A stretch of DNA of 64,000 nt from a virus (Duplodnaviria; Caudoviricetes), in IMG/VR virus record IMGVR_UViG_3300021964_000054, positions 582 to 64,581 of that record. One strand, 5' to 3'. Positions within the stretch are counted from its first letter, which is position 1. Each line of letters opens with the position of its first letter. The translations under genes were made by a program, and so were the position numbers. The notes beneath the pieces are model-generated. The model made no database searches and was not told where the DNA came from. It saw only the letters and a list, made by a program, of their open reading frames with translations. Positions 14,737-59,094 of the stretch are shown here, one piece after another.

Positions 14737-14738
14737 AT

Positions 14739-17574: not shown

Positions 17575-17601
17575 AAGGCCTGGCTTACGCTGGGCCTTTT
17601 T
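17575..17601 (+). terminator. intrinsic terminator for + strand replication transcript
   Basis: AAGGCCTGGC-ttac-GCTGGGCCTT followed by T-tract. Confidence 0.7.
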
Positions 17602-22075: not shown

Positions 22076-22401
22076 CATTATATCATGGTACAGACCGTAG
22101 AAATTTAGGCTCCATCTTATCAAAAGGATTGTTAAAATCTGCTTTTGAAGGTGGAGTTTATCTTACAGACACAGCTGAATCAGCCTTAGCATGGACAGCA
22201 ATAAGAGTTGCTGCCGCAGGAGGTTCTGAGATTTTAGTTTGTGAAGTTGAAATTGACGAAAATAATTTGCAATTGGGATGTGATCACAGCCCTGCTATGC
22301 AAGAAATATTTGGATGTGGTGAATCATATGTGCACAAAGGCGACATCCCAACAAAGTGCATTAAAAATTATACAGTTTATGGCACTAAGAAAAATGTTTG
22401 A
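22072..22401 (+). CDS. ADP-ribosyltransferase-fold protein (Tpt1/KptA C-domain-like)
   Basis: LYHGT..NL.SI...GL, GVYLT, GESYV..GDIP. Confidence 0.65.
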   Translation: MTLYHGTDRRNLGSILSKGLLKSAFEGGVYLTDTAESALAWTAIRVAAAGGSEILVCEVEIDENNLQLGCDHSPAMQEIFGCGESYVHKGDIPTKCIKNYTVYGTKKNV

Positions 22402-32705: not shown

Positions 32706-35700
32706 TTATTGAAGTCTTTTTAATACATCAAGTCTATCAGAAGGATGGAATATGCTTCTGAAGTTTCTAATACCTGTAAGATCAGCAAAATCTTTAACTA
32801 ACTTAACGTCACCTTTTTCGTAAGGGCCTGATTTTCTTGAATAAAAAGCATCTTTCCAAACCTCTTGATAATACTCACTGTCATAACCAGGATCAGGTTC
32901 TTCACCCCCATTAATCATCATCGCCATCCCAAGACTCCACCCGTGATTGACCATTCTAATTAATGTATTAGCTTCTCTCACAAAAGGAACAGCTGTTGTA
33001 AAGTTTTTTACATACTCTGTAGATCCTGCCCCTACAGGGAACATAGACATTGCCTCCATTTTAACACCCCATATCACACGTATCATATTACCTGTAAGCA
33101 TATCTATTTCTTCATCATCTTCATCTTTACGCTTAACATAAGAAAGAAGCATGAAAGAAAGAATTCCTAGCATGCCCATTGCCATTGCATCACGCCTTGC
33201 ATGGTGAACTCTTCTCTTATAGAAATCTCCAATATCTTTTGTTGTGGTTTCACCATCTTCTCCTTTAATTACCATGGTATCAATTCCAGTTGATCCTAAT
33301 TTCTCCATAACTCTAGACCCCAAGAAAAACTCTCCTAGTGTTGCCTTTGCGCCAAATAGTTTCCAAGACTGCATCACGGCCCTCCAGTACCCCAAGGAAG
33401 CCTCACCACCTTCCCAGTTTGGTCTTAAGTACCCAAACCTATTAAGCATACCTGGAACCAAGAACTTTCTAAAGAAGAACATCGCCTTTCCTAGAAGTGT
33501 AGACTCTTTTTGTGTTTGATCAGATTTGGCGTAGTTACCTTGAGCTCGTCTTATTTCTGAGTAAATTGTATTTCTAACTCTATTTTCATCTTCTTCACTA
33601 AAATCAACATCTGCTCTTCTAACAAGTTGACCTTGTTCATTTTTTGCATATGCTTGATGAACCGGCACATAAACTATGTTGCCATCAGAATCTCTTTTAT
33701 ATGTCTTCTCACCTGTAGTAGGATCTACACTTGCTATTTCAGGGAATCTATAACTATTCATTATAGCATACATAACAGTTACTCCAATTTCTGTATCACC
33801 TTTATCCTGAAGTAAGAATCCTAACTCTCCAGGAGCAGTCAGTCTTTCCATACTTTTTCTCTTACGACCCCCAGACACATCCTCATAATATTTAATCATA
33901 TCTTTTTGAAGAGGATTATACATTCTATACAACATGGTTGAATCATGCAAATCGTGAACTCTACCCCAATCAGAAAAATAATTATGAATAAAACCATTGT
34001 AGCCATATACCATCTTCTTTGCCACAAGATAGTCTTCTCTACTATAGAAATCATTTTCATTTGAACCCGCTGCCAAAAATGCTTGAAGATTACCTGCTAC
34101 GTAGTTTTTTGTCTGGTTAGCTAAATCAAAACCAATCCTTACAAATGCTGTCCATCCAAAAACAGCACCGGCAATCTTTTGAAACTCTCTATTTTTTTCC
34201 TCAGAAGTTTGTCCAGAAAGGAACTTTTTAGACTCAAACTCTAAAAGTTTAATGACCTCATCTAGTTCAGCCTTTCTTTTTTCCATGTTTACTTCAACAC
34301 TTTCACCCTTTTCGTTCTCAATATATTGAACACCTTTAGTGGCCAATGCATCTCTTTGCATTTTAAGAAACTCAATTGAAGACTCGCTAATAGGAAGAAC
34401 TTCTTGCATTGCAATATTCATATGAGCTTCAGTAGTCCACTGCATTACCGCACCAATAACATCCTCAGTCTGTAAATCCTCTGATAGTTGATCTGCAAAC
34501 CTGAGTCTTAAAGACTGACCCAAATCACCAAAAACGTTTTCAACTTTATCATGTTGAGACTCTGTGGTCTTCAAGTGTTTATCAAGGAATATGTTTGCTT
34601 GCTTTTTAAATGCTGCCAAGAAGCCATTTCTAGCTACATTCTCTACAAGACTTGATGAAACACCAGGTACACCGTATCCAGTTTTTCTACCTTCAACCTT
34701 TTCCTGAAGACCAAAGAACATCTCTGTTAGAGCATCATATAACCTTTTTATGTCAGAATTGTTTTGTATGTCCAAATACTTTGGATTCATATTTTTTGAA
34801 GGTGACATTCCAGGCGTTATAACATACCTGTTATCACTATTAATCATCAACTCTTTAGGTAAAGGTATTCCATCAGGTCCTTTTATAAAGTTCTCATTGT
34901 AAGCACCAGGTTTTGTCATCAACCTTCCCTCAGCTTTCAAGCTTTCCATCTCTTGAGGATTCTTCTTAAGCTCTTTTATTTCCTCATTTTTTAATTCAAC
35001 TCCATCAAGAGTCCAGTTACCCAACTTCAAACGCTTTAGTTTATAGTATTTAGGATTAGGAACTGTCTCCATATATTGATCTTTTACAGCAGGATTAGGA
35101 ACATTCTCATAGTTAAATGACTTTGGCTGCTTGGTAGGAGCTCCGTGGTCAACTATAGATTTATATTTGTTAACATGATTCTTATTAAACCATTGCTCAA
35201 ATTTTTGTTCCTGCTGATCAAACTCAACAGTTGCTGCAATCAATTCTTCTTGAGCTTTTTGTATTTCCTCTTTGTTACCAGAAGATTTTGCAAGAATAAG
35301 TTTATTGTTTGCACCTCTCATGTCTCGTAATGCTCTTTCTAGTATTCTATATTTACTTGAATATTCTTGAGAATAATTTTCATTTACCTGTCTAGTTTTT
35401 ATAGCTCTAATTTGTTCTGAAATTATTCCAAGTTGCTTTTTAGTTTCCTTATCTAACCCAGATGGAGTTTCTCTCATCTTCTGAATTCTATCTTCTATCT
35501 TAGCCTCTAATTCATCAAGAGCTTTTATTTCTTCATCATTTAAAAACTTAGAAGTAAAGCGACCACCTTGTTTGTGAGGACGCATTATCTTTGATCTTTC
35601 TTCATACCATTCAGAAAGAATCATATCTTGAGATGTAAGACTAAAAAGTTGGTCATAAAGAGCACCTAAATCATCATACCATTCTTGACTAGGCCTTGTG

Positions 35701-38822: not shown

Positions 38823-38823
38823 T

Positions 38824-41058
38824 TTATAAGCATTTAAGTTTGTCTAGTATATCTTGGTTGTTATATCCATTTCCAGCCAAAGCATTAGAAAGAATTTTAG
38901 TTTGTTTCCCAAACTCTTCAAGATCCATTGTTTTGCTTGAGAATCCATAAAGATAACGAATTGCATCTTCAGTAAAGTTTAAATCATTTAAATCTTGCAT
39001 TATTTTATTTTCATTTTCATCTTTAGCATTGTTTGCAGAGTCAGATTCTAATGCTTGGAAATAAACAAGACGATCATTAAAGTCAGGGGCCAAAATGTTA
39101 TCTTCATCAAAGTAGTCCCACATTTGATAATCATATGCATCCTTAGGTCTACCCATCATATTAAGTTTCTCATAAAAGGCATAATTAAAGTGAGCTAACT
39201 TCAAACCATAATCTGGATCAGGCACTGAAATATATTCTTCTGAAGTTTCTGGTCTTAAAAAGAAATCAAAGAGATACATCTGATCTATCTCTTCTTCTGT
39301 AAAATGTTCAAGTCTATCATTAAAAGAACCTGTTAATGATTTAAATCTATCTTTAAGTTCTTGATTTTCAGACCATATTGCATTCACTGTAATGTAGTAT
39401 GCATTCGCTTTTTGGTTGTAAAAAGTATATAGCATATCCATGTCAGGATACTTTTTAAGTATCTTCTTAAAGTAATCAGACTTATCAACGATATCTTCCA
39501 TCACAAGTTTCATGTTGCCCTGAATCTTGTATTTTTTTGCTTCTTTAAAGTTACCTTCTGAAACCAACTTTCTATACATCGCATCATTTTGAAGCTGCTC
39601 CTCAGTCATGTAATCTCTTTTGTCAAGACTTAGACCATGAATATCAGAAGGAACAATCATATCAATATCATGAAGCGCATCTATCATAGGTCTATAAACA
39701 GTGCCTTGAAGACGGTATGCTAAAGATCCTGTAATAATATTTCCCCAATCACTAAACCATTTCATAAACCCTAACGCTCTTCCACCATCTTTAGCGTTTT
39801 GAGTTTCAATGGTTTCTGTATAGGACAAAAGATTAAAGTCTGAAGTATCTTTCTTAAGTCTTTTTAGCTTAGACTTGTCCCCTGCTAATATATCTTTTGC
39901 AATAAGATCTGCTTCTCGCTCTATAGACGAATAACTAAGCTTGGCAAGAATGTCAGAAATAAAGTCAATTATTCTTTGGACAACACTCCAAAACTCTGAA
40001 TCCTGCTGGGCCTTATAATTTCTAACTAATGCTATACCAATGGCCTGACCAACTGCTTCTTTCTTGATTTTATATATGTCAATATTACCTTCAGAGGTTT
40101 TGTATATATCTTTGTACTGATTGAACACCCTTTCATAACCATCCCACTTTTCTATTTCATTAAACATAAAAGTGAACAACTGGTTTCCAGACTTCTTTTT
40201 AGAAATTGATCCTAACAGCTCAACAAAAGCATGTCCATACTCCTCAGGAAGAGTCAGCAAGTTTCTGTTCTTTGCGTAATAAATTGTTTTTGCAAGAACA
40301 TCAAATACACCAACACTATCAACTCCAAACTTTTCTTTAAGGTTATCTATCTCCTTATTTCTAATTTTAAAATCTGAGAAATAGTCAATTAGCAATGCTT
40401 CAAGTTTTTTGTCTAACGGCTCTTGCACAGCTTGATAGTATTGGCGATCCGCTTCTTTTACTATCTCCTTAGAATAAATAGATAAAACTTCTGATACTCT
40501 AAATTGTTTTAGACTAGGATTATTATCAAGTATTGATATAAATTGCTTTCTAAATTCTGGAGCCATCCCCACTCTTTTAAGCTCAGCGTCAAGTTTCTTA
40601 TTAGATCCAATTGATTTTACAACTTTGTTTACACCTTTTAATCTTTTTTGAACCTTCTCCAAGTTTGTCAGAACATCATCTACTTGAAATAAATAGTCAT
40701 CATCAAAATCTTCACCGGCCCTTTCTGCATCCTCTTTAAGCATTGCTCTTGCTTGTTCAGTGTTGACCTTAAGTAGATAAGACTCATAATACTCTTCAAT
40801 TATTTCTGGACCTGGCTCAAATACAACTTCATGCCCATTTGTTCTCTCAACAACATAAGCCATCTTTCCACCATAATCCCTAGCAGATCTTTTCAAAAGG
40901 CTTTGTGCAACTTGATATGACTGACCAGGGAATTTAAAAAGAGCATTAGACACAAATAAAGTATTTGGACTAACTTTTTTAATATTACCTGTTTCATAAG
41001 TTTTGACAGCTTTCTTTATAAGTGCCTTTTTAATATCAACTTTACATTTTAGTGCCAT
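38824..41058 (-). CDS. virion protein: degenerate zincin + Pol-beta-type nucleotidyltransferase
   Basis: LPEEYGH; IITGSLAY.LQG...HDIDMIV; K....GRPKD.YD. Confidence 0.65.
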   Translation of the reverse strand: MALKCKVDIKKALIKKAVKTYETGNIKKVSPNTLFVSNALFKFPGQSYQVAQSLLKRSARDYGGKMAYVVERTNGHEVVFEPGPEIIEEYYESYLLKVNTEQARAMLKEDAERAGEDFDDDYLFQVDDVLTNLEKVQKRLKGVNKVVKSIGSNKKLDAELKRVGMAPEFRKQFISILDNNPSLKQFRVSEVLSIYSKEIVKEADRQYYQAVQEPLDKKLEALLIDYFSDFKIRNKEIDNLKEKFGVDSVGVFDVLAKTIYYAKNRNLLTLPEEYGHAFVELLGSISKKKSGNQLFTFMFNEIEKWDGYERVFNQYKDIYKTSEGNIDIYKIKKEAVGQAIGIALVRNYKAQQDSEFWSVVQRIIDFISDILAKLSYSSIEREADLIAKDILAGDKSKLKRLKKDTSDFNLLSYTETIETQNAKDGGRALGFMKWFSDWGNIITGSLAYRLQGTVYRPMIDALHDIDMIVPSDIHGLSLDKRDYMTEEQLQNDAMYRKLVSEGNFKEAKKYKIQGNMKLVMEDIVDKSDYFKKILKKYPDMDMLYTFYNQKANAYYITVNAIWSENQELKDRFKSLTGSFNDRLEHFTEEEIDQMYLFDFFLRPETSEEYISVPDPDYGLKLAHFNYAFYEKLNMMGRPKDAYDYQMWDYFDEDNILAPDFNDRLVYFQALESDSANNAKDENENKIMQDLNDLNFTEDAIRYLYGFSSKTMDLEEFGKQTKILSNALAGNGYNNQDILDKLKCL

Positions 41059-41064
41059 GAGTTC

Positions 41065-44000
41065 TTAACAATTATCTTCATCATTTAAATCAATACCAGG
41101 TTTACCTTTAGGCTTCACCTTGTTTTCATCAGTTGGATCTTCATCTAAAAGACCCTTAAGCATATCCTCTGTATCCTTAAACTCTTCATCAGTACCCACA
41201 ATATTACCATTATAGTCTTCAAATTCCATTGAAATCTGACCAGCATCTTGTGCAGGTATAATTGGTTTTTCAGGCTTTTCAACTGAAGGCGTTTCAGATA
41301 CATCTTCCTCAACTTCTGCACTTTCAGTTTCTAAAACAATGTCCTGAATCGTACCATCATAGTATCCATAGATGGCAACCAAGTTATCATTTAATGGAAC
41401 AACCTTATCAAGATTGTTTTTTATTTCAGAATTCACCTCCACAGGTTTAACGCCATTAGCTGTGCCTAAAGTAATATGAGGATTTTCATTTGTTGATTTA
41501 TCATTCTCTAACACAAGTGCATCAATCTTGTCAGTAATAAGTCTACCTATAACTTTTAAGCTTGTTCTTTCTCCAACCTGAACATCAAGTCCACCTCTAT
41601 AAGAAACTGTCATATGATGAGCGTGTCTATTGGGCATACTAGTTGGGTACTTTTCATCCATTTCCTTTCTGCTTACAAATGCACCGGTATAGACAACGTT
41701 TCTTTTAGCAGGAGTACGCTTAGTATCTGGGTCGTTTGGATTTACTGTATTATTACCCTTGTCAATGACTTCTGTTTTTGATATAAGCCTTTTATAACGC
41801 TTTGCATCTTCTTTTGTAAATCCTAGAGGACTTATCATTTCAGACGAAAACTGTTTAGGTATTGCAGTGTATGTAGCTTTCTCACCTAGAATAGTCATTC
41901 TATTAGATCCTTCAGCTAATGAATTAACCAAAGTTTCTCCCATGTTCTTGTCATCTGATGTATCCTCATTACCTTGATAGACATAATAAGTATCTTTAAT
42001 CTTAATTAATGGTGGGAAAGCAAAGGTATTAATAGTGTCATCATATGATATACCCATCTTTCTTCCAATCTCATAAATAGCAAGCTTTTCTTTTTTATCC
42101 TTACCATCAATAGACATATCTATTGTAAACTCAGCTTTTAGCGTACCAGGATTAAGATTAAATGAACTAGCAGACTTTTTAAATACTTCCTTTTTTTGTT
42201 TTGCTGTAAAGCTAAACACTGATGAAATTGCATTTCTGACAGCATCCTTTGCCTCTAAAATATCATCCTTAGTATCACCTTCAAGAATGTTTTTAACTAA
42301 CCTTGAACTTTTGTTTTTCTTTTTCGCATCATAATACCAAGACAATCTTTTTATCTCAGGAACAATAGCTTCACCCTTTTCGTTTTGTTCAGCTAAAGAA
42401 TAAGCAACTTGTGTTAACAGGTTATCAAAGAAATCATAGACCTCATCATTTGACATATCCTCTTTGCCAAAAAACTGCCTAACCTTTGACAGTACTATTT
42501 GCTTAGCTTTTGCAGAATCACCTTCTTCCAAAGAGTCAATTTCTTGAGATGCGTCTTTAAGTGATAAAATAAACTCGTCAATACCTTTTGAAATAGGTGC
42601 TAACAAACTAGGTGGAAAGAACTTTAAAAATGATCCAGTAGCTGTAATCATACCAGTTCTTGCCAACTCATGATAAAACAATCTTTTAACAAACATCCTA
42701 GCCTCATTATCTGTAGGATGGTTATATAGAAAAGCAAGATCTTGAGCTATTTCTTCAGCTAGAGTACCTTTGAGTTTTGATCTTTCATAAAGCTTTATAA
42801 CTTCTTCATTCAATCTAAGAACTCTATCATTTGACATTGCATTAGCAGTAGCATCACCTTTTTCATTTCTCAGATATTTTAAGAACTTGTTATCTGAATA
42901 CTTTGATTTAAACTTAGAAATCTCTGTAGATAAATTATGAGTAAACCAATAGTCTGGAGTAAATGTATCAAGTAAATTCTTGTCATCTTTATCTATAAGA
43001 TTTTGAAGCTCAGGATTTGAAGATGATCTTGAACCTGGGAATGACTCTAAGAACTTTCTAATTCCAACAAATGCTGTTATTGTTTCTGCAATATGCCTTT
43101 TGTCTTTAAATGACTTTGTGAACAACCCTACCAAAGGCCTAAAGAATGGAGACTTTTCTAAGAATAGCTTTGAGGCCTGTTCATTTAGATCAGACAGCAT
43201 CTCCTGCATAGTATTGTAAACAGAATCTTTTGAGAAGATTCTAGCAGCAGAGTCTATTGTAAATATACTTCTGTCATTTGTAATCTCATAAATAGCATCA
43301 AGTAGATTATCTATCTCAGTAAGGGTAGGATTTAGTCTCTTGAACATATTAGTTACCCTAGAAGCCTTAGTTAAAGTATTGCTCTGATTAACCTGATCAA
43401 TATACATTTTTGTAAGCACAAACTCCATTGCTGAATCAGCAAGACCAGTTCCATCTTCAAGTCTAAGATCAAATCCTATTTGAGTAGGTGTAAGAGTGTT
43501 TGAGTTTAAAGCATCTTTATCAATTGTCTTAGGAGTAAAATCAAATATTATTTTTGAACTAATTACTTTGCCAGACTCAACATCATAAAGACCTGCAAGA
43601 ATCAAATTTTCAAGAACATCTGGGTCCAACTGATCATACAAGTGACCAGAAAAAGTTTTGAAGAGTTCTTCAGTATCTGTAGATAGTGCATTCTTTTGAT
43701 ATTGAACATTCTGAGAAGCTATTCTTACAGAAGGCATGAAGTTAAATGCTGCAACCATTGTAGGATCTAACCCTAGACCTATCATTGAAAGAGTTGTGTT
43801 TACATTTACATCATTCCATTGGAGAGCTGCAGGTATAGGTTCTTTTGTAGCATCTGCAAACATACCCAAGATATTACCTATCAAAGCAATAACTCTTTGC
43901 TGTTGCTCATTAACATGTGAAAACTTATCCTTAATCACTCTCTTACCATCCTTATCTAAATAGTCCCAAACAACACCATCCTCATTAAGTTTAAGGTCAT

Positions 44001-50000: not shown

Positions 50001-53000
50001 CTCTATTTTTAAAGAGCCCTAAAACAGTTCCATCTATTTTTGACAAGTCAACAACATCCTTAACACCATCAAGTGAAATACCAAATTGAGGTAGTATTGA
50101 AGACAAGAACTGAACCTCTGACATAAGCTCGCTGTCAGAAATTATCTGAACGCCTTCAGGAGTTTCTACAAGTTTGAATCTCTCAACGCGATTGAAGTCA
50201 TCATCATTATCATCTCTTTTGTCTTCTTTTTGTTTTCTATATTCTTCTGCCAAGTAGTCCTCAATCCTAGTTAACTCATCTTTAATGTCAGCCTTAACCT
50301 CTTGACCTCTAGCCATATTTAATCTTATGGATTCAATCTGGGCTTGATCTGGCTCTGGTTCAGCCTCAAGCATTTGCAAATTCATATTTGCATCTATCAA
50401 TGCATTATCAATGTTGATAATATCTTCAGAGAGTTTTGTCTTTCTATTCTCAGCTCTCTTTACTGAAGTCAGTGCTTCTTGCTGTTCTTTAGTGAGAGTC
50501 TTAACAGGGCTAGATCCCGCTTCAGGTTTTTTAGCAGGCTTTTTTTCTATCTTAGTATTATCAATTTTTTTCCTGTCTTCACTAGAAGTTGGTCTAACAC
50601 CTTTAGGTTGAATTGAAACAGTCTTAGAAGATGCAGACCTTACATCAAGATTTGATAAGCTTTTCTTAAACCAGTTGTTATCCTTTTCATTGTAGCTTCC
50701 AACATGGATTTTAGGAATAAGTCTTCCATCTTCAAGAATGTCAAAAAACAAATACTCAGGCTTATACTCCCCGCTAAAAGTTGCATCTTTTTCAAACAGT
50801 TCAAAAAACTCAGCATTACCTACATCAATAGTTTCACCGCCAACTGTCATCTTCTTTGTCTTCAAAGGAGTGACTATTGCTCTCATTATCTCATTGCTAA
50901 ACTCCTGGAGCAACTCGGTTTCAACATAATCAACTAGTTCAGACATTTCTTTTGTCTCAAGACCATCAATCTTTGATTTGTAAATGGTATTATAAAGTTC
51001 CATTACCCCTTCAATAGTCGATAAATCTAAAGTTTGCAATGCCTTGTTTGAAGCAACTGCAGCCTTTACCTTTTCACTTTTTGACATCTTTTCATAGATG
51101 CTTTTTATAACAGACTCATTAACAGGAAACCTGAACCCTAACTTCTTTCCTCCAGTGATTGCAACTTGATTAGTCTGAACTATATCTCCAGTAGTAGCCT
51201 CAGTATAAGGCTCAGTAAAATCCCCTCTCTTTGAACCATAAGGTCCAAGTTCTATTTGTAGCTTGTTCCCTTTCTGTGGTTGCCCAGTAGATAAAGAAAA
51301 GCTTAATGCATACTGACCTTCACCATCTTTTATTGCACCCTTGAAATTAAACGCACCTTGTTCTTCAAAAGATTTTACCTTTCTAGCCTTTTCGGCAGGT
51401 TTTGCAGTTATTGCATCAAATAGTTGAGAAATATATGAAGCAAGCATTGGAGCAGCAGACAATGCACCACGAGATTCTAATACTCTATGACCAGAAGCAT
51501 TTCCTTTTTTGTCAAACTTAATAACAAAGTTTCTTGTTATTCGTTTTATGACACTATTGTTTATTCTGCGCAAAGTACCATCTTCAGATCTTTGGGACTC
51601 AATTATCTTTTCAATTTCTGCGTCCTCTGCTTTGAAGTGTTCAGCTGCCCAGTCTTCATAATTTAGTTGATCTCTAGCATAGTCAACATCAGTGATTAGT
51701 ATTGGTTCACCAGTTTCAGTTTTAACCTCAATAAACTCATTAGAAGCAAGAAGCGAAACCATTGAGTATGAAACTTTTCCTCCAGGTGATATATCTTTTT
51801 TAATGTAAAAAGGAACTTTTCTACTGTCCTCCCTTTTGATAACATTGTTTTCAGCATCAACAGTTACAACCGGCAATTCTAAAGAAATAGAATCATCTAC
51901 TTTTATTTGACTAAGCAAATCTTTTCTTTCTGTTTCATGTCTTTTTGAAGTAACAGAATATGAATCAAAAAATTCATTTGTTATCTCAACACTGTCTTTA
52001 CCTTGCTCAAGTGCCTCATTAAACTTTTCTCCAACAACTTCTTTAAGGTTAGAAAGATGTGCAGATGCATTTGAAATAGATCTCAAGTCAGACTCGCTAA
52101 GTGCAACTAGTGAACCAGTTGAACTTTGCTTTAATGAAAGCATTTGAATTTGTTTTAAGTCCTCAACATTTGAAAGATCAACTTTTGTAGTTGTGTTATC
52201 AGCATCAACAAATACCATGTCATCATTAGAATGAACATAGAATATCTGACCAGTTGAAAGAACCTTACCCATTATTGCAAAAGAGTCTTCTGAAGCTTTT
52301 GGTCTTGAAACTGTAAGCACTCTTGCAGAAGGATTAGATTTAAGCTTTGCAACCTGCTGAGTAGTTTCAAATGTCTCATGGTTTCTATTAGATAAAAGTT
52401 TAAACTTTTTTTCATCTCTAGCTAAAGACTTCATTCTTTGAACCCGTGAATCACCTACAGGGCCAACCTTAACTGCAAAAAACTTTATGCCAGATTCTGG
52501 AGCTGACATTTTTGACAGAGCTTTTGTTAAGTCTGCTTGTTCCATTGGATCTGCAGCTCTAAACTTAAAACCTGAAACAAGTTCATCGTTTCTAAAAATT
52601 TCCTCACCGTTGTTAGTTCTTGAAAATACTTGTGGTCTTGACTGCTTATCTACTAATATCTCATCAGGGCTTATTGGCTCAAGTAAACCATCAGAATTTA
52701 ACTTAAGAAGTGCATTTGGAGATTCTGATTTAGCATCTCTAACAGCCTCTATCATAGTACCATCCTTTAGAATAACCAAGTAATTAGAAAGACCAGCATA
52801 GTCTGAAACCTCTCCATTTATATCTATATACTCTGACTCAAATGTGAGCATCTTGTCAAAGGCCGCATCAACTATTTTGAATAAGCGATTTTTGTAAACA
52901 TCATTCCTTGCAATGGTTCCCATCTTAGCAATGTTACCCTTAATCTCCTTTTTGATTTTTTCAGAATAGTTTGAACGATCTTGATCAGTTTCAAAGTCAT

Positions 53001-53436
53001 TAAAAATAAAGAAGTTTGTCACAAAATTTAAGAGACTATTAAGACTATCATCACCTTCTTCTGCAATGAAATCCATTGTTTCAAGAGCCTTGATTTTTTT
53101 ATTCAGCGTAGCTTTTCCAAAATCTTCTTGGGCTGAATTATCAGAAAACAAATCTCTGATGTGACTGATGTATGCAGCATTATCATCTATGAAGGTTACA
53201 GCTTTTTTTACATCATCTGCTTTACCGGCATCATAAAATTTTGGATCTACATCCTCAAGCATTTTGTAAATATGAGCAAAGTTGTGAACTGAAAGCTTTT
53301 TTTGCTCAGCACTTAGACTATCTGTTTTCAATATAAAGTTTGCTGCAGCATTAAAGCTTTTATACAATGAAGGATTCATTTTAATAAGATCCTCAACTAT
53401 TGCTATATAATTAGTAGTGTTAGTTTCACAAGACAT
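41065..53436 (-). CDS. giant single-chain virion DNA-dependent RNA polymerase with zincin and C-terminal 2H phosphoesterase domains
   Basis: GSDFDID at 44881-44895, RIP, YDGQS; HEAFH at 49942-49956; HHMT and HIT near C-terminus. Confidence 0.85.
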   Translation of the reverse strand: MSCETNTTNYIAIVEDLIKMNPSLYKSFNAAANFILKTDSLSAEQKKLSVHNFAHIYKMLEDVDPKFYDAGKADDVKKAVTFIDDNAAYISHIRDLFSDNSAQEDFGKATLNKKIKALETMDFIAEEGDDSLNSLLNFVTNFFIFNDFETDQDRSNYSEKIKKEIKGNIAKMGTIARNDVYKNRLFKIVDAAFDKMLTFESEYIDINGEVSDYAGLSNYLVILKDGTMIEAVRDAKSESPNALLKLNSDGLLEPISPDEILVDKQSRPQVFSRTNNGEEIFRNDELVSGFKFRAADPMEQADLTKALSKMSAPESGIKFFAVKVGPVGDSRVQRMKSLARDEKKFKLLSNRNHETFETTQQVAKLKSNPSARVLTVSRPKASEDSFAIMGKVLSTGQIFYVHSNDDMVFVDADNTTTKVDLSNVEDLKQIQMLSLKQSSTGSLVALSESDLRSISNASAHLSNLKEVVGEKFNEALEQGKDSVEITNEFFDSYSVTSKRHETERKDLLSQIKVDDSISLELPVVTVDAENNVIKREDSRKVPFYIKKDISPGGKVSYSMVSLLASNEFIEVKTETGEPILITDVDYARDQLNYEDWAAEHFKAEDAEIEKIIESQRSEDGTLRRINNSVIKRITRNFVIKFDKKGNASGHRVLESRGALSAAPMLASYISQLFDAITAKPAEKARKVKSFEEQGAFNFKGAIKDGEGQYALSFSLSTGQPQKGNKLQIELGPYGSKRGDFTEPYTEATTGDIVQTNQVAITGGKKLGFRFPVNESVIKSIYEKMSKSEKVKAAVASNKALQTLDLSTIEGVMELYNTIYKSKIDGLETKEMSELVDYVETELLQEFSNEIMRAIVTPLKTKKMTVGGETIDVGNAEFFELFEKDATFSGEYKPEYLFFDILEDGRLIPKIHVGSYNEKDNNWFKKSLSNLDVRSASSKTVSIQPKGVRPTSSEDRKKIDNTKIEKKPAKKPEAGSSPVKTLTKEQQEALTSVKRAENRKTKLSEDIINIDNALIDANMNLQMLEAEPEPDQAQIESIRLNMARGQEVKADIKDELTRIEDYLAEEYRKQKEDKRDDNDDDFNRVERFKLVETPEGVQIISDSELMSEVQFLSSILPQFGISLDGVKDVVDLSKIDGTVLGLFKNRVIYLNDQLKVKGVVFHEAFHGVFRYLMTNSERRNLIQTVMNDSKHYEKFTQEALMKFAEERGYEYNIDRMAELVAEEILADGFQNYMNQKSKKKKPSGIIGFLYDLLERLIRAFKAYENDIDLIYDKIATGYYKSAAIKSNMYDGQVAFELIPGPNIILNEQGNTDIHWLQTSEQNRLIDMVVGELLKDDSNDNFDDKFDNVTTKIIDSIYNIDLIINQNEKTKASALDIKQKYGDMFNAYRFMLGARMKGYQADDINLTGDSRYDNRATKNPYNLTGVGYVDNTSGQYSYQILKKLVKKKYDSAVRMDLIRSGDVEVIVNADEVEAIFDDENLKVSDSESNSANQELEGSNDFDVTLGNMNVIDSYVSQVRRFFSTIRRDEIDDATGAVIPRMLDGEHLFTSVVKVTSNLSPDKIISSIKSFAETMIEDGRVSTGLDFEALHNEIENSTKMIDGQPGNKRLYNMLVDVFNNVELNWKMFNVSTPKPLTEAELASPLPPVQQRFNFRVTDKVLERSVRDKRNQIITSINISHSENANTKVYKDAHRKLLSLIKEITVTSKGKILTSVSPKSRLNKLTNELNENMKILGIDVPKSLIRLSLMAIHNNEYKQPLLGLDPSHVEFYDLNENFIREGQYLEEDFFRSLGGLLTSMYKGNNPDPAFSNKLDDESKIDNIRRFMVILKSASAYIVKYDPSIVHSTILNAEGKSIYRFSKYNPMAMLAQRLRTLGLEGALEDEMYWDDFVRDFFLDNPMLGPILKGEVTDQSKEMQLFLNNFESSLFGGVQQIVGKDEYKDGKVFKDIDAKSLYILNMLSFLSRKTITGKDGTTIQVYDRSFHQLEATQTNFLTSSLHKSFVNLSAVKTADKTRSLREREGKLLYKDKHLLIVKDLEAVVRQEFNRIKREWNSRLERKENYELGLDNKNINKYNATLNPDGTVEVDADSLRAYNFNKLSDFFENVPELRDKIIELAKGGSILDTETNELVGAEKFEDIPVELIDELLSSLDTFAQQTYDNHLQKLVDQGVVEKVIVPSKTTDQPTIYYKSDLLPDFMRDSGISVKSKRKKNPFQDRTLKLNSIYPKSAGSDSVLESVLFDHFMNYWSNALMLNELMDGDIAMNVKNNQDYVKRLKKVVASGSNLKEGYHKVAYLNTIEAFIYDGHLDKGPYYNRAEIENDPTLSPEQRLELLEAYDQDVDGDRKFFHETYDGQSHSLLMHHMDIYDSTGRLDETAKHLMIAKHYRKLTKDEANYLKSLKIVLNSKKTVTAGLNVYHKLSEAHIDRMDVSYVVIPKNASRQTVNRIYDEIHSLYLQIYDTRKAIEELIKIKAPAQEISMLEADISNLTSKVHSYFMPMPHRKMLHRMLNSMEHYNVDQVMDTSASKNATLLPVQVLSNESVGTNFTSEGLINLNLSSVPVPNRSKYVQVETSGVKDYAKVSVQKKLLLPADINPKDVLGVLEAEAIREGKPLTESEKLAVEDLSSSFYKYKDSLNAVMKGRLEYFKRVIREGGDIDVAKLYDVIREGLESQGAASSILAYFATENGKPKFSPNLPVIRRTLEYYFMAQYSNNVTDEKAFGFKNFHESSFGYEVLEDIETGRIITSEEISKNPSLYSDNTKYRVRPLSVSVEVDPETGIKTHWVEAIVPAPFFNNPSQKQFWLARINKMFGVRIPTEDKRSMIAIKVVDFVDESKSNNVIVPHFIHLLSGSDFDIDSLFGQMKAFYEDAAGNFHLYGDYSGYELADQNTAQFIEWLHFMQNSIEFKDAIKDKKQELIDSTSSFSFPKDGDLDYILGALGFTNEDLMYVALEVEDKTIYSAVKQRRKSLIAIKGDIKKDYVEAKERTENNRLDRDAWRERKEKGEIIADLNTEINFMQRSKDLLDALFGYQATMDVLRNSGLPASIDQFNSDPVYSEMVSYKQQNKNLDATLEVLTNEAVFNRLFINQRASTEEFVKILDSFGLDLKEMTTKSNLYTLDNAISSKVENQMNKDGIGITAVMNKFLALASQYDLKLNEDGVVWDYLDKDGKRVIKDKFSHVNEQQQRVIALIGNILGMFADATKEPIPAALQWNDVNVNTTLSMIGLGLDPTMVAAFNFMPSVRIASQNVQYQKNALSTDTEELFKTFSGHLYDQLDPDVLENLILAGLYDVESGKVISSKIIFDFTPKTIDKDALNSNTLTPTQIGFDLRLEDGTGLADSAMEFVLTKMYIDQVNQSNTLTKASRVTNMFKRLNPTLTEIDNLLDAIYEITNDRSIFTIDSAARIFSKDSVYNTMQEMLSDLNEQASKLFLEKSPFFRPLVGLFTKSFKDKRHIAETITAFVGIRKFLESFPGSRSSSNPELQNLIDKDDKNLLDTFTPDYWFTHNLSTEISKFKSKYSDNKFLKYLRNEKGDATANAMSNDRVLRLNEEVIKLYERSKLKGTLAEEIAQDLAFLYNHPTDNEARMFVKRLFYHELARTGMITATGSFLKFFPPSLLAPISKGIDEFILSLKDASQEIDSLEEGDSAKAKQIVLSKVRQFFGKEDMSNDEVYDFFDNLLTQVAYSLAEQNEKGEAIVPEIKRLSWYYDAKKKNKSSRLVKNILEGDTKDDILEAKDAVRNAISSVFSFTAKQKKEVFKKSASSFNLNPGTLKAEFTIDMSIDGKDKKEKLAIYEIGRKMGISYDDTINTFAFPPLIKIKDTYYVYQGNEDTSDDKNMGETLVNSLAEGSNRMTILGEKATYTAIPKQFSSEMISPLGFTKEDAKRYKRLISKTEVIDKGNNTVNPNDPDTKRTPAKRNVVYTGAFVSRKEMDEKYPTSMPNRHAHHMTVSYRGGLDVQVGERTSLKVIGRLITDKIDALVLENDKSTNENPHITLGTANGVKPVEVNSEIKNNLDKVVPLNDNLVAIYGYYDGTIQDIVLETESAEVEEDVSETPSVEKPEKPIIPAQDAGQISMEFEDYNGNIVGTDEEFKDTEDMLKGLLDEDPTDENKVKPKGKPGIDLNDEDNC

Positions 53437-53448
53437 ATTATCTCTTAT

Positions 53449-56400
53449 TTATTTTTGACAACCGTGTATATCTTTTAATTTCTGAATGATTGAATCTTCT
53501 GTAACGTCTGCTTCAGTTGATTCTTGCTCAGCCTCAGTAAATTTAGCACTTTCTTCTTGAACTTCATCATCAACCTTCTCTTTTGGTTGAGCTTTGATTG
53601 AACTTAACCTTGTATCAAGATCTTGAATACTTTCCATTGTAAGAGCTGATCCAGTTGCTGTTGTTGTTGTTTCAAACAAAAGAAGTTGAGTTCCTTCTTT
53701 TATAGCCTCATTTCTTTCTTGCTTTTCAACCTCCAAGACATCTTCATAAGTAGTGCCAAGTATTGCTGATTTTTTTGCAGCTTCCAACTCTCTCATACCC
53801 TTAGGTATTTTGCTATACTCTTCAAGTGTTGCTATTGGAGTTTTTGAGCCCTTGTTATGAATTTCTAGCAACCTCTTACCTCTACTGACAAATAATTGTA
53901 AATCTTCAGAGAAGTCACCCAATCCTTTTTCAGAATCACTTAGAAACTGTATTCCAAACTCAACATTTTGCTTATCATTAACAAGACCCTCTACTATAAC
54001 TTCTGCATCATTTAGTGTAGGAAGATTTTCTATCACCACTGATTGATTTGAATCTCTGACTTCATAACCGCTTTCATCATCACCATATATCTGGTACTGA
54101 CCTTCTTTGTCTGAAGCTAGATTATCAGTTGTTTCAGCATTATCGCCCTCCTCCAACATAGATTCAATATCATCCATGTTTTCCTCTCCTGGGAAATATT
54201 CTTCTGGTTCTTTAGAAGGTGGTTGTTCACTTGCCTCTTCTTCTAAGGTTTTAATGTAACTTTCAGCCTCCTCTTTTGTACTAAAAGCCAAAACATCATC
54301 ACTTGTGGTATCAGTAATTGGATTACCGCCTTTTTCTATGTACCAACCATATCCGTCCTGATAAGCTACAGAATACTCACCTTCTATATTACCTTGAGAT
54401 CCTAATTCTTTTTCTAGTTCATCAATCTCTTGTCGATGTGCTTTGTAAATAGTACCCTCTCTATTAGAAAGTTTTTCCTTTTTTGCATTCTTGTTTGCAA
54501 TAGAATTCTTTAAAGAATCATTAGCCTTTTGATTATCGTTAAAGTTTTTCCAATCTTCATCAGAAACAGCCTCTTTAGTTTGAGTTAAATTAGAAAGTTC
54601 CTCTGGGGTAACAAGATTTAATTTCAAAGCTTCAGATATAGCATCTTGATCACCCATTGTTTGAACTTCTGCTGTAGAATATTGACCAGACTCTACAAGT
54701 TTTCTTTTTGAGAATGACACAGGATTAGCACCAATATGATTTTCAACAGCTTTGAATATATCATCTAATACTGATTCTTGCATGTTTATATTAAACGCTC
54801 TCTTTAAGAAGTCAGCTAATAACGACAAGAAGTCTTGCCATACAGATTGCTCTCCATATTTACTAGGTACTTTTTGAAGTTCAGCTTGAAACTCTGGATT
54901 ACTATATGCTTCTGCTAAAAATTCATGGATATTTGTAAATCCATAAAAGTCTGTATCAAGTCCTGTCGCTTGTAGAGTTTCTTTTGCATGTGTAAATAAA
55001 TCTTGAACTTGTTTTGCAAATTCACCTTCAGGTGCATTGTTAAGTTCATTAGATGTCATATAGTGAATCATTTCATGCATTAGTATTCCCTCAAAAGACA
55101 TTCCCAAATCAGCAATTGTAGGGTCTATGACTATCATATTATTATTTGCATCATAGTATCCAGGCGCATATGTTTGCTCACTGTTAAATTCAATCTTATG
55201 TTCAGGATTGATGAATGGTAAAAAGTTTTTGAGAACTTCTTTTACGTAAGGATGGGTATGATTACTTGCGATGGCCTTTTGGACTACTGATACCAAGGTT
55301 CCAGTTGACATATCAGAAATACCATAGTATTCAATAATGTCATCAAAGTTTCTGTCATCAGTATCTAAAATGAAAAGATTAGTACCAGCTCTTCCTTTTG
55401 TTACATCAACATCTCTTTCATCATAATTTTTAGTTTTTGTTCGCTTACGAGTTCTTTTTGCAGCTACTGCATCTTTTAAACTTTGAACTTTCTTATCTAT
55501 CTCATCTTTGAAAAACTCATAGATTTCAATTTGCTTTGGTGAAAGTTCTTCACCCGCAAACATTTTTTCTGCAATAATATTTTTGGTAAAGTCATCTACC
55601 TCTTCTTCAGTTTTAAATCTAGTATAGACCTCATCTGAAACATCTTCAAATGTTTCTGGGAAGTACTCTCTATTAAGCCTTGCTATCTCACTATTCATGA
55701 TAGTTTCAAGTTCTAAGTAAGCTTCATAAGCCATCTTAAATTGCTCTGTACCAAGATTTTCATTTACAACAACTCCCAATAAAGTATTATATGCATCGCT
55801 TTTCTTTATAGTATTTTCAAGTCTCTCTTTAATTTTAGGCATCAGTGAACTTAGGTTCTCCGCAAACTCATCTTCAGAAACTTGATCTAGATTTTCCTGC
55901 ACAACAGATTGAGTAATTTGCAGAGAGGTTCCAATGATGAATCCTTCTATCATATTAAGCCAATCTAAAACCTCTTTTTTAAACTTTCCATCAGACATTC
56001 TTTTTAGAACTTGTCTATAGTGATCAGGATTATACAATGCATCTACAGCTCTCATATAATCTTTAGCATCTTGATCAAGTCTAATGAAGTCAATAATTTT
56101 ATCAAATCCACTTCTAAGTTCTTCTTCAGAAACTTCAGTACTTATTCCGGCTTGCTTGTTTCTAAGATTTACAAACTTCCTAAATGCTTCAAGAGCTTTT
56201 TCATCATGCAAATCCCAAGCATCTTCTTTTTCTTTTGTAAATCTTCCAGTCTTAGAATCTCTTTTTTGTCTTTTAAACTTTCTACCTACATATGTATTTT
56301 TAACCTTATCTTTTTTCTCAATAACTTTACCAGTGTCTGGATCACGTCTTTTTGAAACAACATCTCTGTCATCCCAATACGTCATCCATTCATCGTATAT

Positions 56401-59094
56401 TTTCTTTTCCTCTCTTTTCTCTTTTAGTTGCTTTTCAAGACTTGCTTTTAATTCAGGAGTAAGACCCCCTTCTTTAAGTTGCGTTTTTAATGATTCAATT
56501 TCAGAACCCAACATTCCAATCTCACTATCCATCATTTCTGGATTTGTCAAAACTCTCAAAGCATGTTCTGCAGAATTTGCTAATCCTGGAATAGAAAGTA
56601 TGTCTTTAGAAACAGACTCTGCTCTTTCGTCAGCTCTCATAGCTTTCATTTTATTTAAGGCTATGATTTTAATTGCATCTTCTTGAGCATTGTGAAGCAT
56701 TGTTGCAATCATTCTTTCTTCAGTTCCCTTTTCATACATAAAAGGATCTGCTAAATTTTTAGCAGTCTTTCTTACAGAGTCTACTACATTTGAATATTTT
56801 TGCACATCATCAGCAACGTCATTCATAAACTCTAAAGGTGATGAATACTTTGTTTCTGACAACTTTGTTCCAAACTGGGCCTCAAACTGTTCAGCAGTCA
56901 TTTCCATTCCGGCATCTCGCAATGCATGCGTAAACATATCAATAGAACCACTTCTGTTTGCAGCAAGTGCTGCATTAAGCATCATATTGTCATATGCATT
57001 TTGATACTCATACTGTTTGTTGTTTGCAGCAGCTTCTGTCTGATCTATTGTGGATTGAACAGTATTTGAAAAGCTAAAAATAGCATCTTCCTTTTTTGTC
57101 TTAGAAGTCATTGATGCAATTGCAGCATTTACAAGATCAGCATCTCTTTGCATTTGATCCTCATGCTGTTGATATGGATTTTGAGTGCCATCTTTATATT
57201 GAGCATTCATTGCAGCTTTTTGTGCTGCACCTAATCCTTTTTGAAACAATCTTGTGGGACCATGAATAAGACCACCTGTTAATGCACCCATTAAGAAAGT
57301 TTTCAGTCCTTGCTTTGACCATTGTTCGCCAAGACCCTCACTAAATGCGTCACCTAAAGTTGATGATGCATTTTCATATTGATCCACATAGTAACGTGTC
57401 CAAGCACTGTTACTTGTCTCTTGAAGGTTTTCCTGAAGACCTTCTGTTACTTGAAACTTACCAAAGTCTTTTACAAGCTTTTTACCTAATTCATATACAG
57501 CCTGCTTTCTTCCAAAGTCTTGTGAGACTTGACCTATAAGACCGTAAGTTCCAAAAAATCCTTTCTTATATTGCTTACCTATAGTTTGAGTACCTTTGAA
57601 CATTCTATTTACGTTCAAAAACTCTCCAGTAGCATCCTCCATTATTTCTTTACCAAACTTATTGGCCAAGCTGAATTTGCTAAACAGACCTCCAAATTGG
57701 AGTCTATTTGTTGCAAGAAGAATTGACAAGTTTGTTCCATAGTTTTTAAATGACGCTTTCATTGAAAGCTCCTGCATTCTTATAAGTTCTTCGGCAGGAG
57801 GAGTCTCTCCATTATTACGAGCTCTATAGTTTTTAACCATCTGATCTAAAGTAGCACCGTATGTACTAACTCCCTCAAATGATGCTTCTGTAGAAGCTAG
57901 GTTAAACTCTTGTCTGACTCTTGACAATCCCTTTAAACCAATACCTGTAAGCTTACCACCACTAAGACCAGCTTTAGCACCAACTGCAATCTTTTCACCA
58001 TAACGAACACCAGTACCAACTAAAGGAATACCTTTAGCCATATTTTGTGCAAACTCTCCAAAGCTTTTTGATTTAACTGTCTCATCAAAGTTTAGAGAAA
58101 GTGTTTTCCAAAGTTCACTAAGCATGCCTCGTGCAGGATTGCTTCCTACTTTACCTGCATCTTTAACAGCATCAGCTTGTCCCATCTTAATATCTGTTGC
58201 ACTAGCTCTAATACCATCTGTAGATGTGTCTCCTAGTTTCCAACCTTCACCAAGATCTTCAAGAAACTTACCTGCTTTAGTAGTACCTTTTTTTGCACCC
58301 TTTTTTAGAACCTGTTCTCCAACTTCTTCTGCAGCTTCTTTACCTACTTTTTTAAGACCAAACTTAGCACCAAGCCTTCCAAATGTAGCACCAAAAGCCG
58401 CAAAACCTGGAATACCAGCTGCTGGCGCAGTGGCAACAGTAATTAGCAAATCTGCCGCAAGCTCAATTCCTACACCGGCAAATGTACCTAATGCAAAACC
58501 TGCGTTACCTATAAACTCAGAAACTGAACGCTTGCTGAAAATATCATCATCTTCATCAGGTGGAACAAAGACAAAATCCTCCATCATGTCTTTATGCTCT
58601 TTCCAGTTGTATTCAATCATTTGAGCTTCACCAGGTTGAAGCTTGCTAGAGTCCCAAGAGAAAAGGGCGTTAAACATTCTACCATAACCTTTCCAATAGT
58701 CCTTAAAAGTATGTCCAAAACGAGAAGCAAAACTATCAAAACCTTTACCTAAGGCATCTCCCCAACTTTGTTCAGCAGTCCATCGCTCATAGTTTGTTGG
58801 ATCATTACTATTAAAAGTGTAAGAGTTAAAGTCATCTTGAAATCTATATAAGTCCAGCTCTGGGCCAGCATAGCCAACTTCAGAATGAGCAACAGGTTTA
58901 TTAAAGTCCAAAAAACTTTTAGGAGCAGGTGGTGCAAAATTTGTTTTAAAAGCATCATCTGCAATACCATTCATAACCTCACCAAAGTTTGACTTGGGAG
59001 GATCTGGTGTTACTTCTGGAGAAGTAAATTGTTCTGCACTTATATCATTTAAATCTGACGTTATATCAAACCCTTCTGTTTGCTCTTCTGCCAT
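53449..59094 (-). CDS. giant ejection protein with Gly/Ala-rich membrane helices and zincin domain
   Basis: N-terminal hydrophobic G/A-rich helices, TEGLQE.LQ; HEMIH at 55063-55077 with EFLAE. Confidence 0.75.
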   Translation of the reverse strand: MAEEQTEGFDITSDLNDISAEQFTSPEVTPDPPKSNFGEVMNGIADDAFKTNFAPPAPKSFLDFNKPVAHSEVGYAGPELDLYRFQDDFNSYTFNSNDPTNYERWTAEQSWGDALGKGFDSFASRFGHTFKDYWKGYGRMFNALFSWDSSKLQPGEAQMIEYNWKEHKDMMEDFVFVPPDEDDDIFSKRSVSEFIGNAGFALGTFAGVGIELAADLLITVATAPAAGIPGFAAFGATFGRLGAKFGLKKVGKEAAEEVGEQVLKKGAKKGTTKAGKFLEDLGEGWKLGDTSTDGIRASATDIKMGQADAVKDAGKVGSNPARGMLSELWKTLSLNFDETVKSKSFGEFAQNMAKGIPLVGTGVRYGEKIAVGAKAGLSGGKLTGIGLKGLSRVRQEFNLASTEASFEGVSTYGATLDQMVKNYRARNNGETPPAEELIRMQELSMKASFKNYGTNLSILLATNRLQFGGLFSKFSLANKFGKEIMEDATGEFLNVNRMFKGTQTIGKQYKKGFFGTYGLIGQVSQDFGRKQAVYELGKKLVKDFGKFQVTEGLQENLQETSNSAWTRYYVDQYENASSTLGDAFSEGLGEQWSKQGLKTFLMGALTGGLIHGPTRLFQKGLGAAQKAAMNAQYKDGTQNPYQQHEDQMQRDADLVNAAIASMTSKTKKEDAIFSFSNTVQSTIDQTEAAANNKQYEYQNAYDNMMLNAALAANRSGSIDMFTHALRDAGMEMTAEQFEAQFGTKLSETKYSSPLEFMNDVADDVQKYSNVVDSVRKTAKNLADPFMYEKGTEERMIATMLHNAQEDAIKIIALNKMKAMRADERAESVSKDILSIPGLANSAEHALRVLTNPEMMDSEIGMLGSEIESLKTQLKEGGLTPELKASLEKQLKEKREEKKIYDEWMTYWDDRDVVSKRRDPDTGKVIEKKDKVKNTYVGRKFKRQKRDSKTGRFTKEKEDAWDLHDEKALEAFRKFVNLRNKQAGISTEVSEEELRSGFDKIIDFIRLDQDAKDYMRAVDALYNPDHYRQVLKRMSDGKFKKEVLDWLNMIEGFIIGTSLQITQSVVQENLDQVSEDEFAENLSSLMPKIKERLENTIKKSDAYNTLLGVVVNENLGTEQFKMAYEAYLELETIMNSEIARLNREYFPETFEDVSDEVYTRFKTEEEVDDFTKNIIAEKMFAGEELSPKQIEIYEFFKDEIDKKVQSLKDAVAAKRTRKRTKTKNYDERDVDVTKGRAGTNLFILDTDDRNFDDIIEYYGISDMSTGTLVSVVQKAIASNHTHPYVKEVLKNFLPFINPEHKIEFNSEQTYAPGYYDANNNMIVIDPTIADLGMSFEGILMHEMIHYMTSNELNNAPEGEFAKQVQDLFTHAKETLQATGLDTDFYGFTNIHEFLAEAYSNPEFQAELQKVPSKYGEQSVWQDFLSLLADFLKRAFNINMQESVLDDIFKAVENHIGANPVSFSKRKLVESGQYSTAEVQTMGDQDAISEALKLNLVTPEELSNLTQTKEAVSDEDWKNFNDNQKANDSLKNSIANKNAKKEKLSNREGTIYKAHRQEIDELEKELGSQGNIEGEYSVAYQDGYGWYIEKGGNPITDTTSDDVLAFSTKEEAESYIKTLEEEASEQPPSKEPEEYFPGEENMDDIESMLEEGDNAETTDNLASDKEGQYQIYGDDESGYEVRDSNQSVVIENLPTLNDAEVIVEGLVNDKQNVEFGIQFLSDSEKGLGDFSEDLQLFVSRGKRLLEIHNKGSKTPIATLEEYSKIPKGMRELEAAKKSAILGTTYEDVLEVEKQERNEAIKEGTQLLLFETTTTATGSALTMESIQDLDTRLSSIKAQPKEKVDDEVQEESAKFTEAEQESTEADVTEDSIIQKLKDIHGCQK

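Follow-up and report, generated by a model that had tools for sequence, protein, structure and literature searches.

In cyanopodophage A4, a disulfide between Cys1715 of gp27 and Cys5 of gp26 was seen by cryo-electron microscopy, where it locks the C-terminal helix of gp27 in a cleft of gp26 (PNAS 2025, PMC12002296). Here we describe four consecutive giant genes, one of which encodes a virion-type RNA polymerase (RNAP), in a 64,000-nucleotide (nt) stretch of viral DNA (positions 582 to 64,581 of the 64.6-kb IMG/VR record IMGVR_UViG_3300021964_000054; this whole stretch is hereafter called the window), at which cysteines (Cys) occur only near the ends of the proteins that face one another. In the A-4L record, open reading frame (ORF) 27 (1717 amino acids, aa) has one Cys, 3 residues from its C-terminal end, and ORF26 (1114 aa), 5 nt apart from it, has one Cys at position 5. 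This is the signature of each of the three window junctions, a sole C-terminal Cys followed by a sole N-terminal Cys. A4, however, has one such pair only, with no two-ended member and no RNA polymerase, and forms a pentameric ring rather than the linear chain proposed here; the A4 account, in the portion covered here, draws no general rule and does not discuss fusion or fission (PMC12002296).

The ejected proteins of N4-like phages (Schitoviridae) offer a second comparison. N4 gp50 and DEV gp71, gp72 and gp73 were reported to be Cys-suppressed, which was explained, citing earlier work, as avoidance of periplasmic disulfide catalysis (PMC11445570). The same near-total absence of Cys is found inside the window proteins; however, the Schitoviridae proteins are essentially devoid of Cys even at their termini, whereas the window proteins keep one at every facing terminus, six in all, and these are conserved. 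The internal purge fits the published periplasm argument and would also fit avoidance of thiol-disulfide scrambling, the latter being our own suggestion.

The third comparison is with crAss-like phages (Crassvirales), whose virion RNAPs carry a DFDxD hallmark motif and some of which fuse the three proteins of the module into one polyprotein (10.1101/2020.03.07.982082). The window block corresponds to g067-g066-g065 of phi14:2 and gp47-gp50-gp49 of crAss001, and its first protein (A, below) matches g067 and gp47 in position and in Cys pattern. The modules of these two phages hold homologous giant proteins, a DFDxD RNAP and the same terminal-Cys bookkeeping; the window phage differs in having a fourth link (M, below) and a 4123-aa RNAP with extra domains. 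The homologues were found in virions of phi14:2 and crAss001 by mass spectrometry (10.1101/2020.03.07.982082; PMC10172136), and by analogy the window proteins would be packaged in the virion as well. The fused polyproteins consist of the same modules in the same order in one chain, with joints that are peptide bonds needing proteolysis, whereas the window joints would be reversible by reduction.

For crAss001, the ejection order was described as "likely to be controlled" by packing and mutual interactions, and structural disulfides were reported in the virion, all of them in gp57 and the tail (PMC10172136). The word "cysteine" is absent from the portion of that paper covered here (PMC10172136), as is any word beginning with "cys" or "disulf" from that of the phi14:2 preprint (10.1101/2020.03.07.982082). 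Literature searches returned no description of terminal cysteines in crAss proteins; supplements, including the crAss001 Extended Data disulfide and mass-spectrometry tables, lay outside their coverage and could bear on the point. An earlier note on this DNA, made from the letters alone, had known of no description of such a chain. This stands for Crassvirales in the literature searched, and does not stand for phages at large, since the single head-to-tail disulfide of cyanophage A4 was published in 2025 (PMC12002296).

Terminal cysteines of four giant proteins

In gene order, the four proteins are here referred to as A, RNAP, M and Z. Their features are given below; A1 denotes an alignment of 16 RNAP sequences.

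53449..59094, minus strand: protein A, chain link 1, 1881 aa; sole Cys C1879 (codon 53458-53460), 3 residues from the C-terminal end, after an amphipathic ..IIQKLKDIHG
41065..53436, minus strand: RNAP, giant virion-type, internal link, 4123 aa; C3 (53428-53430) and C4123, the last residue (41068-41070)
49942..49956, minus strand: RNAP HEAFH zincin-type motif, residues 1161-1165; H1161, E1162 and H1165 invariant in A1
44881..44895, minus strand: RNAP DFDID catalytic-type motif, residues 2848-2852; D2848, D2850 and D2852 invariant in A1
38824..41058, minus strand: protein M, internal link or adaptor, 744 aa; C5 (41044-41046) and C743 (38830-38832)
40636..41052, minus strand: N-terminal adaptor of M, residues 3-141, which follows the RNAP C-terminal tail; profile match
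39034..40635, minus strand: payload insertion of M, residues 142-675, between the two adaptor matches
38827..39033, minus strand: C-terminal coupler of M, residues 676-744, ends in ..ILDKLKCL and always precedes Z; profile match
32706..38822, minus strand: protein Z, last link, 2038 aa; sole Cys C6 (38805-38807), no C-terminal Cys
59106..61739, minus strand: 877-aa upstream protein without Cys, outside the chain, which marks the free N-terminal end of the chain

By script count, the six listed Cys are the only ones in the 8786 aa of A, RNAP, M and Z (0.07%). All lie at most 6 residues from the six termini that face a neighbour; none is internal, and the outer ends of the block, the N-terminus of A and the C-terminus of Z, have none. 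Four of the codons are TGT and two are TGC. The genes are separated by gaps of 12, 6 and 1 nt, and the summed mass of the proteins is 999.7 kDa. Two of the C-termini, those of A and M, have a tail motif in common (..IIQKLK..C and ..ILDKLKC.). A shortage of Cys is not a feature of the rest of the genome: of the 6259 aa encoded by the 25 plus-strand ORFs of the window, 106 are Cys (1.69%). The earlier note had read all of this from the sequence, namely the coordinates of the four ORFs, the six Cys and their codons, the two Cys-free outer ends, the shared tail motif, the ordinary Cys content of the cytoplasmic enzymes in the window and a total of ~1 MDa, and the recount reproduced it, with the ORF coordinates exact and all four on the minus strand.

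At the 1.69% rate, the probability of six or fewer Cys in 8786 aa is ~1e-55, and that of six randomly placed Cys all falling within 6 residues of a terminus is ~3e-14; both values, together with the conservation in relatives described below, rule out chance or composition as the cause. The start codons, and with them the N-terminal Cys, are secure, because only 2-7 in-frame codons precede each start before a stop is met (the next in-frame start being at codon 20-36) and because the N-terminal residues are conserved among homologues. A lipoprotein or signal-peptide role of the N-terminal Cys is unlikely, given that no hydrophobic leader lies ahead of it.

Residues 2230-2900 of the RNAP gave tblastn matches in 77 phage records, at 20-49% identity; among the 60 of the 77 matches listed, all were crAss-like phages or gut phage records. 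Where records are annotated, the matched region belongs to an RNAP gene or to an unnamed giant protein, crAss001 gp50 and p-crAssphage gp44 among them, and DFDID is invariant across the 16 aligned homologues. Near the N-terminal end of Z, residues 139-266 form a PD-(D/E)XK nuclease domain (Pfam E 1.6e-7, above the curated cut-off). Apart from this, PHROGs and Pfam returned almost nothing for the four proteins and no whole-protein family match for the RNAP; phmmer of the RNAP against PDB sequences gave no match, and protein A, searched against phages by tblastn, matched over 130 aa in cr116_1 and nowhere else. The DFDID and HEAFH motifs, the matches to RNAP genes and the nuclease domain of Z identify the block, at the level of sequence, as the virion RNAP and cargo module of a distant, divergent crAss-like phage, which is probably aquatic. 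Among RNAP homologues P0060-P0097, the Pfam domains carried differ, with PF00075 (RNase H) in five, PF25176 in two and PF08719 in two, which suggests that the accessory enzymes are swappable.

Conservation, fusion and fission in related phages

The pattern is retained in distant homologues. Among 58 homologues of A (22-100% identity), 56 have a Cys 1-3 residues from the C-terminal end, in 55 of which it is the only one and in one more is accompanied by a single internal Cys; none has an N-terminal Cys. The remaining two have no Cys and both lack the conserved C-terminal tail of the family, one of them being named partial at source. As for the RNAP (53 homologues, 28-100% identity), Cys3 or Cys4 is present in 50, all 53 have a Cys at most 7 residues from the C-terminal end, and 35 have no internal Cys over about 4000 residues. 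Of the three without Cys3 or Cys4, the first has V as its initial residue and is apparently cut at the 5′ end, the second differs in its start, and the third (4790 aa) has an extra N-terminal region with only weak A-like similarity. Both Cys are present in 10 of 12 M-like proteins. C1879 is the only invariant residue of the A tail (alignment A2), and C4123 the only one of the RNAP C-terminus (A1).

With an RNAP profile, we fetched 54 loci from viral contigs; clustering by RNAP identity gave 30 groups at 70% and 20 at 50%. Thirty have the architecture A-RNAP-Z and seven A-RNAP-M-Z, the rest being fusions or cut by contig ends. Every gene end present obeys the rule, in chains of 2, 3 or 4 links: whatever the number of genes, the first member has a C-terminal Cys only, internal members have both and the last an N-terminal one only, as the earlier note had expected of relatives. 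Wherever a Z gene is present, Z has Cys3-5 and no C-terminal Cys, and the 828-1052-aa protein upstream of the chain (starting MAT.. or MST..) has no Cys at its ends or inside. Internal Cys amount to 56 in 369,136 residues of the chain proteins.

When 279 pairs of adjacent ORFs were scored for Cys on the ends that face each other, both ends had one in 101 pairs, neither in 173 and only one in 5 (Fisher 9e-70, with relatedness ignored). Two of the five mismatches are the RNAPs of loci L054 and L055, where no A gene is present upstream. By ORF and Cys inspection, the L054 contig has a 1744-aa ORF, convergent and beyond Z, with a single Cys 4 residues from its C-terminal end; a profile search with the A alignment found nothing in the contigs of L054 and L039. 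Across loci, the terminal Cys are encoded by both codons (TGT 154, TGC 48), so that selection acts on the residue and not on the DNA; the mixed codons, and the varying distance to start or stop, rule out a DNA signal at gene boundaries as the cause.

Among cultured or reference phages, phi14:2 fits the rule: the sole Cys of g067 (1797 aa) is its last residue, g066 (2180 aa) has only C3 and C2179, and g065 (1421 aa) has only C3. In crAss001, gp47, encoded on the opposite strand, has its only Cys 3 residues from the C-terminal end, and gp49 only C5. Two-link chains are found in p-crAssphage, cr8_1 and Rudgehvirus, where A with a C-terminal Cys is joined by a fused RNAP with Cys3-5 and no C-terminal Cys. 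crAss002 (L061, NC_055828.1) fits the rule if gp33 starts at Met33 (MSC); from the annotated start (15639-15740 region) the protein begins MVLDYS.. and has its first Cys at residue 35, so this start is probably 32 codons too far upstream. IAS virus (L062, NC_049978.1) fits if gp055 and gp056, joined across ambiguous bases (~16560-16800), are one gene, and a single RNAP gene interrupted through poor sequence quality is the probable explanation. Apart from the chain, the sole Cys of crAss002 gp30 (557 aa) lies 8 residues from the C-terminal end, and p-crAssphage (L057), cr8_1 (L059) and Rudgehvirus (L060) have annotated small thioredoxin genes on the opposite strand, at a distance of 2-3 kb downstream of the RNAP.

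Fusion of the genes provided a separate view of the pairing. A search for longer proteins with an A-like region identified 45 proteins of 4052-4992 aa, with the A-like part at about residues 75-900 and, in 43 of them, an RNAP-like region downstream of it (BLAST). None of the 45 has a Cys at the N-terminus or at the junction, whereas a Cys lies at most 7 residues from the C-terminal end in 42 (26-59 residues from it in the other three) and is the single Cys of the protein in 36. Therefore, where the A and RNAP genes are fused, the C-terminal Cys of A and the N-terminal Cys of RNAP are lost together, and the fusion behaves as one link. This search superseded a first attempt to establish L039, L050 and P0111 as A-RNAP fusions, in which the matches were only weak, with a phmmer E of 2e-6 (one pair), an hhalign E of 0.016 and a noisy hmmsearch. 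The L050 fusion is split in overlapping ORFs in different frames, of 580 aa (3146-4888) and 4371 aa (4824-17939), which is either an assembly frameshift error or a real frameshift.

At the other end of the RNAP, 3-link phages have an RNAP that ends with the ~65-aa coupler which ends M in 4-link phages (E 1e-11 to 1e-18). The preceding domain is shared, and no Cys is present where the coupler joins it. In 4-link phages there is in addition a short Cys-terminated tail, followed by a stop codon and by an M with the start M(x)xC. The same coupler ends the A-RNAP fusions of L039 and L050. The C-terminal motif of a protein co-varies with the N-terminus of the next protein and not with its own family. 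From this co-variation, and from an RNAP ending in ..DENCK in one related locus (L044), an M gene was predicted in a 453-nt gap, and a 149-aa ORF with Cys3 and Cys148 was found there.

Intramolecular closure of RNAP or M, from N- to C-terminus, combined with pairing of A with Z, is less parsimonious and was rejected, because A-RNAP fusion removes exactly the C-terminal Cys of A and the N-terminal Cys of RNAP and because two-link phages have only one possible heterotypic pair. Across these loci, three cognate pairs of Cys at facing termini are conserved and are gained or lost together with gene fission or fusion. We infer, with good support from the comparison of sequences, that each pair is a functional joint between consecutive proteins.

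Regarding M, the earlier note had suggested that new modules, perhaps the 744-aa one, could plug into the chain by acquiring two terminal Cys, and for M this did not hold. A profile of minimal M proteins (188-208 aa) matches window M at residues 3-141 (E 5e-43) and 676-744 (E 3e-18), and the ~535 residues in between are an insertion. The minimal adaptor form, 149-195 aa long, already has both Cys, and in other M proteins (326-665 aa) the site of the payload holds insertions that differ in length and are related among themselves only in part. The two Cys of M thus belong to a pre-existing adaptor with a payload slot, and M is no newcomer. One protein, P0258 (1213 aa), has the M N-terminal adaptor (Cys3, residues 1-100) followed by ~1100 residues without coupler or C-terminal Cys, and is either a truncated record or another architecture.

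The AF2 model of M (mean predicted local distance difference test score, pLDDT, 68.7; block means of 78-89 for residues 11-80) has a confident N-terminal adaptor, a payload whose helical part precedes its alpha/beta part, and a four-helix coupler. Foldseek with this model gave no match at E <= 0.001; the weak rows (E >= 0.2) were mostly Pol beta, Pol lambda, TdT and other nucleotidyltransferases, and the alpha/beta part of the payload is possibly a Pol-beta-type nucleotidyltransferase. An Atlas feature search returned no usable match, with all structure rows at TM by query <= 0.35, a related-locus search with the 744-aa protein found no relative, and PHROGs and Pfam returned nothing for the M variants. 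At E <= 1e-10, the payload domain itself (residues 142-675) recurs in 184 or more cluster representatives, of which many are 2000-6000 aa in length, and in many such giant proteins a Cys is found at residue 3-6, at 1-5 residues from the C-terminal end, or at both. The signature may extend, then, to giant phage proteins outside this clade.

Elsewhere in the window, a GIY-YIG homing endonuclease of SegE type (Pfam E 1e-29) is encoded at 12271-12732, among replication genes, and a 109-aa protein at 22072-22401 gave weak PARP/DUF3990 matches below the curated cut-offs.

Nature of the joints

The A4 gp27-gp26 bond and the disulfides of crAss001 particles point to disulfides at the crAss joints as well. 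The best explanation of the pattern, and probably the right one, is that the proteins are held head-to-tail by disulfides at three cognate pairs of terminal Cys, the C-terminus of A with the N-terminus of RNAP, the C-terminus of RNAP with the N-terminus of M, and the C-terminus of M with the N-terminus of Z, into one thread. Each C-terminal tail or helix would dock on the N-terminal domain of the next protein, and the disulfide would lock the joint once the particle reaches an oxidising milieu. The product would be a single A-RNAP-M-Z thread of ~1 MDa, in which all the proteins run N-to-C in one direction, and would correspond, in split form, to the fused polyproteins of sister lineages. More speculatively, the thread could pass out through the tail in the order of the chain, and the proteins could be set free once the joints are reduced in the host cytoplasm.

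Docking was examined by co-folding, as the earlier note had suggested for every pair of termini, here on the A-RNAP junction only. RNAP residues 1-170 with A residues 1790-1881 scored 0.40, compared with 0.01 for the best control, and the runs agreed in at least 63% of contacts. In calibration, 0.40 was reached by 58 of 80 solved complexes and by 2 of 110 mismatched pairs, with only 7 of those 80 complexes, and both mismatches, at or below 0.60. The partner pLDDT was ~50, and the support for docking at this junction is weak.

Several observations weigh against a disulfide-joined thread, this weak complex prediction being one of them. The cytoplasm in which the chain proteins are made is reducing, and the habitat of gut crassviruses is anoxic. 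The case for the bond is built from comparison and the A4 analogy, and since a phmmer search with A-4L ORF26, ORF27 and ORF28 over 645 proteins of chains and their neighbourhoods had no match at E <= 1, the analogy is one of signature alone; the window may work like the A4 pair, while membership by descent is not supported. The counts given above come from related sequences and not from independent events. In crAss001, gp50 (C5) has its C-terminal Cys 9 residues from the end and one internal Cys, and the purge is weaker in gut lineages, with 7 internal Cys in p-crAssphage gp44 and 14 in cr8_1 gp93. Also in p-crAssphage (L057, BK010471.1, 5069-7642), gp47 (857 aa) has a lone Cys 2 residues from its C-terminal end, and no neighbouring protein has an N-terminal Cys. 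The reported crAss001 maps do not resolve gp47, gp49 and gp50 in the capsid cargo zone (PMC10172136). Finally, crAss001, IAS virus and the L054 contig have protein A on the other strand. The claim of the earlier note that the chain follows gene order accordingly holds in the window and fails in these two phages and one metagenomic relative, where the first member is encoded on the opposite strand; by the same token, translational neighbourhood cannot be the general cause of the pattern.

Of the other readings, the one that survives best, albeit as an unlikely one, is that the terminal Cys belong to non-covalent docking motifs or are needed only for assembly or packaging, so that the pairing is real and no bond exists in the particle. 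The coupler and the tails are indeed conserved over 15-65 residues, beyond the Cys alone, assembly takes place in the reducing cytoplasm, and the co-fold weakly supports docking as such. However, the Cys is the sole invariant residue of both the A tail and the RNAP C-terminus, the purge of every other Cys is hard to square with an ordinary packing role, and the same signature is a disulfide in A4.

We consider it improbable that the bonds are homotypic (A-A, Z-Z, RNAP N-N and C-C), giving dimers or head-to-head polymers, although sequence by itself cannot separate homotypic from heterotypic partners. crAss001 gp57 is a disulfide-linked homodimer (PMC10172136), and the lone C-terminal Cys of p-crAssphage gp47 would be explained in this way. 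Homotypic bonding, however, predicts neither that a C-terminal Cys is matched by one at the N-terminus of the next protein, as in the adjacent-pair counts, nor that both are lost on fusion, and the A4 bond is heterotypic, from a C-terminus to the next N-terminus.

Very improbable, too, is a metal clasp, in which the facing Cys pairs would co-ordinate a shared metal (Zn, Fe or Cu) with nearby His, Asp or Glu. Some tails have His or acidic residues beside the Cys (..IHGC.., ..DEDNC), but no second ligand is conserved, most A tails have no His (..ITSCFS, ..INSCFK), two thiolates alone make a poor site, and no CxxC or HxC recurs. Least probable of all is another covalent chemistry, that is, attachment to the portal, inner capsid or a DNA end, or thioester-type ligation or cleavage, for which the fused polyproteins of sister lineages, thought to be cleaved (10.1101/2020.03.07.982082), and the zincin motifs of chain proteins could speak, and against which stand the positions of the Cys (3-5 from the N-terminal and 1-5 from the C-terminal ends, not cleavage-site +1), the failure of Pfam and PHROGs to detect any intein-like or sortase-like module and the matched C- and N-terminal bookkeeping, which points to partners within the chain.

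Beyond the disulfide-joined thread of the window, a broader proposal can be put forward only tentatively, and we regard it as rather less likely to be right than wrong: that Crassvirales at large use a redox-cleavable split polyprotein, in which two to four giant proteins would be clasped by disulfides, leave the tail in order and be released in the cytoplasm as active enzymes, with M as a plug-in payload slot that leaves the clasps intact, and with peptide bonds and disulfides freely swapped in evolution.

For annotation, the rule is already of use, as it predicted the missed 149-aa gene of L044 and flags the over-extended start of crAss002 gp33. The idea of a disulfide chain is open to simple experimental tests in two phages that are in culture. 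Among the phages of the human gut, crassviruses are the most abundant, and the organisation and ordered delivery of their ~0.7-1 MDa cargo, including the RNA polymerase that starts infection, is explicitly named an open question (PMC10172136). Conserved end-to-end clasps, if true, would provide a concrete mechanism for co-packaging, stoichiometry, ejection order and release, and would turn a single structural observation in a cyanophage into a general rule, in which the disulfide serves as a reversible substitute for the peptide bond in ejected polyproteins.

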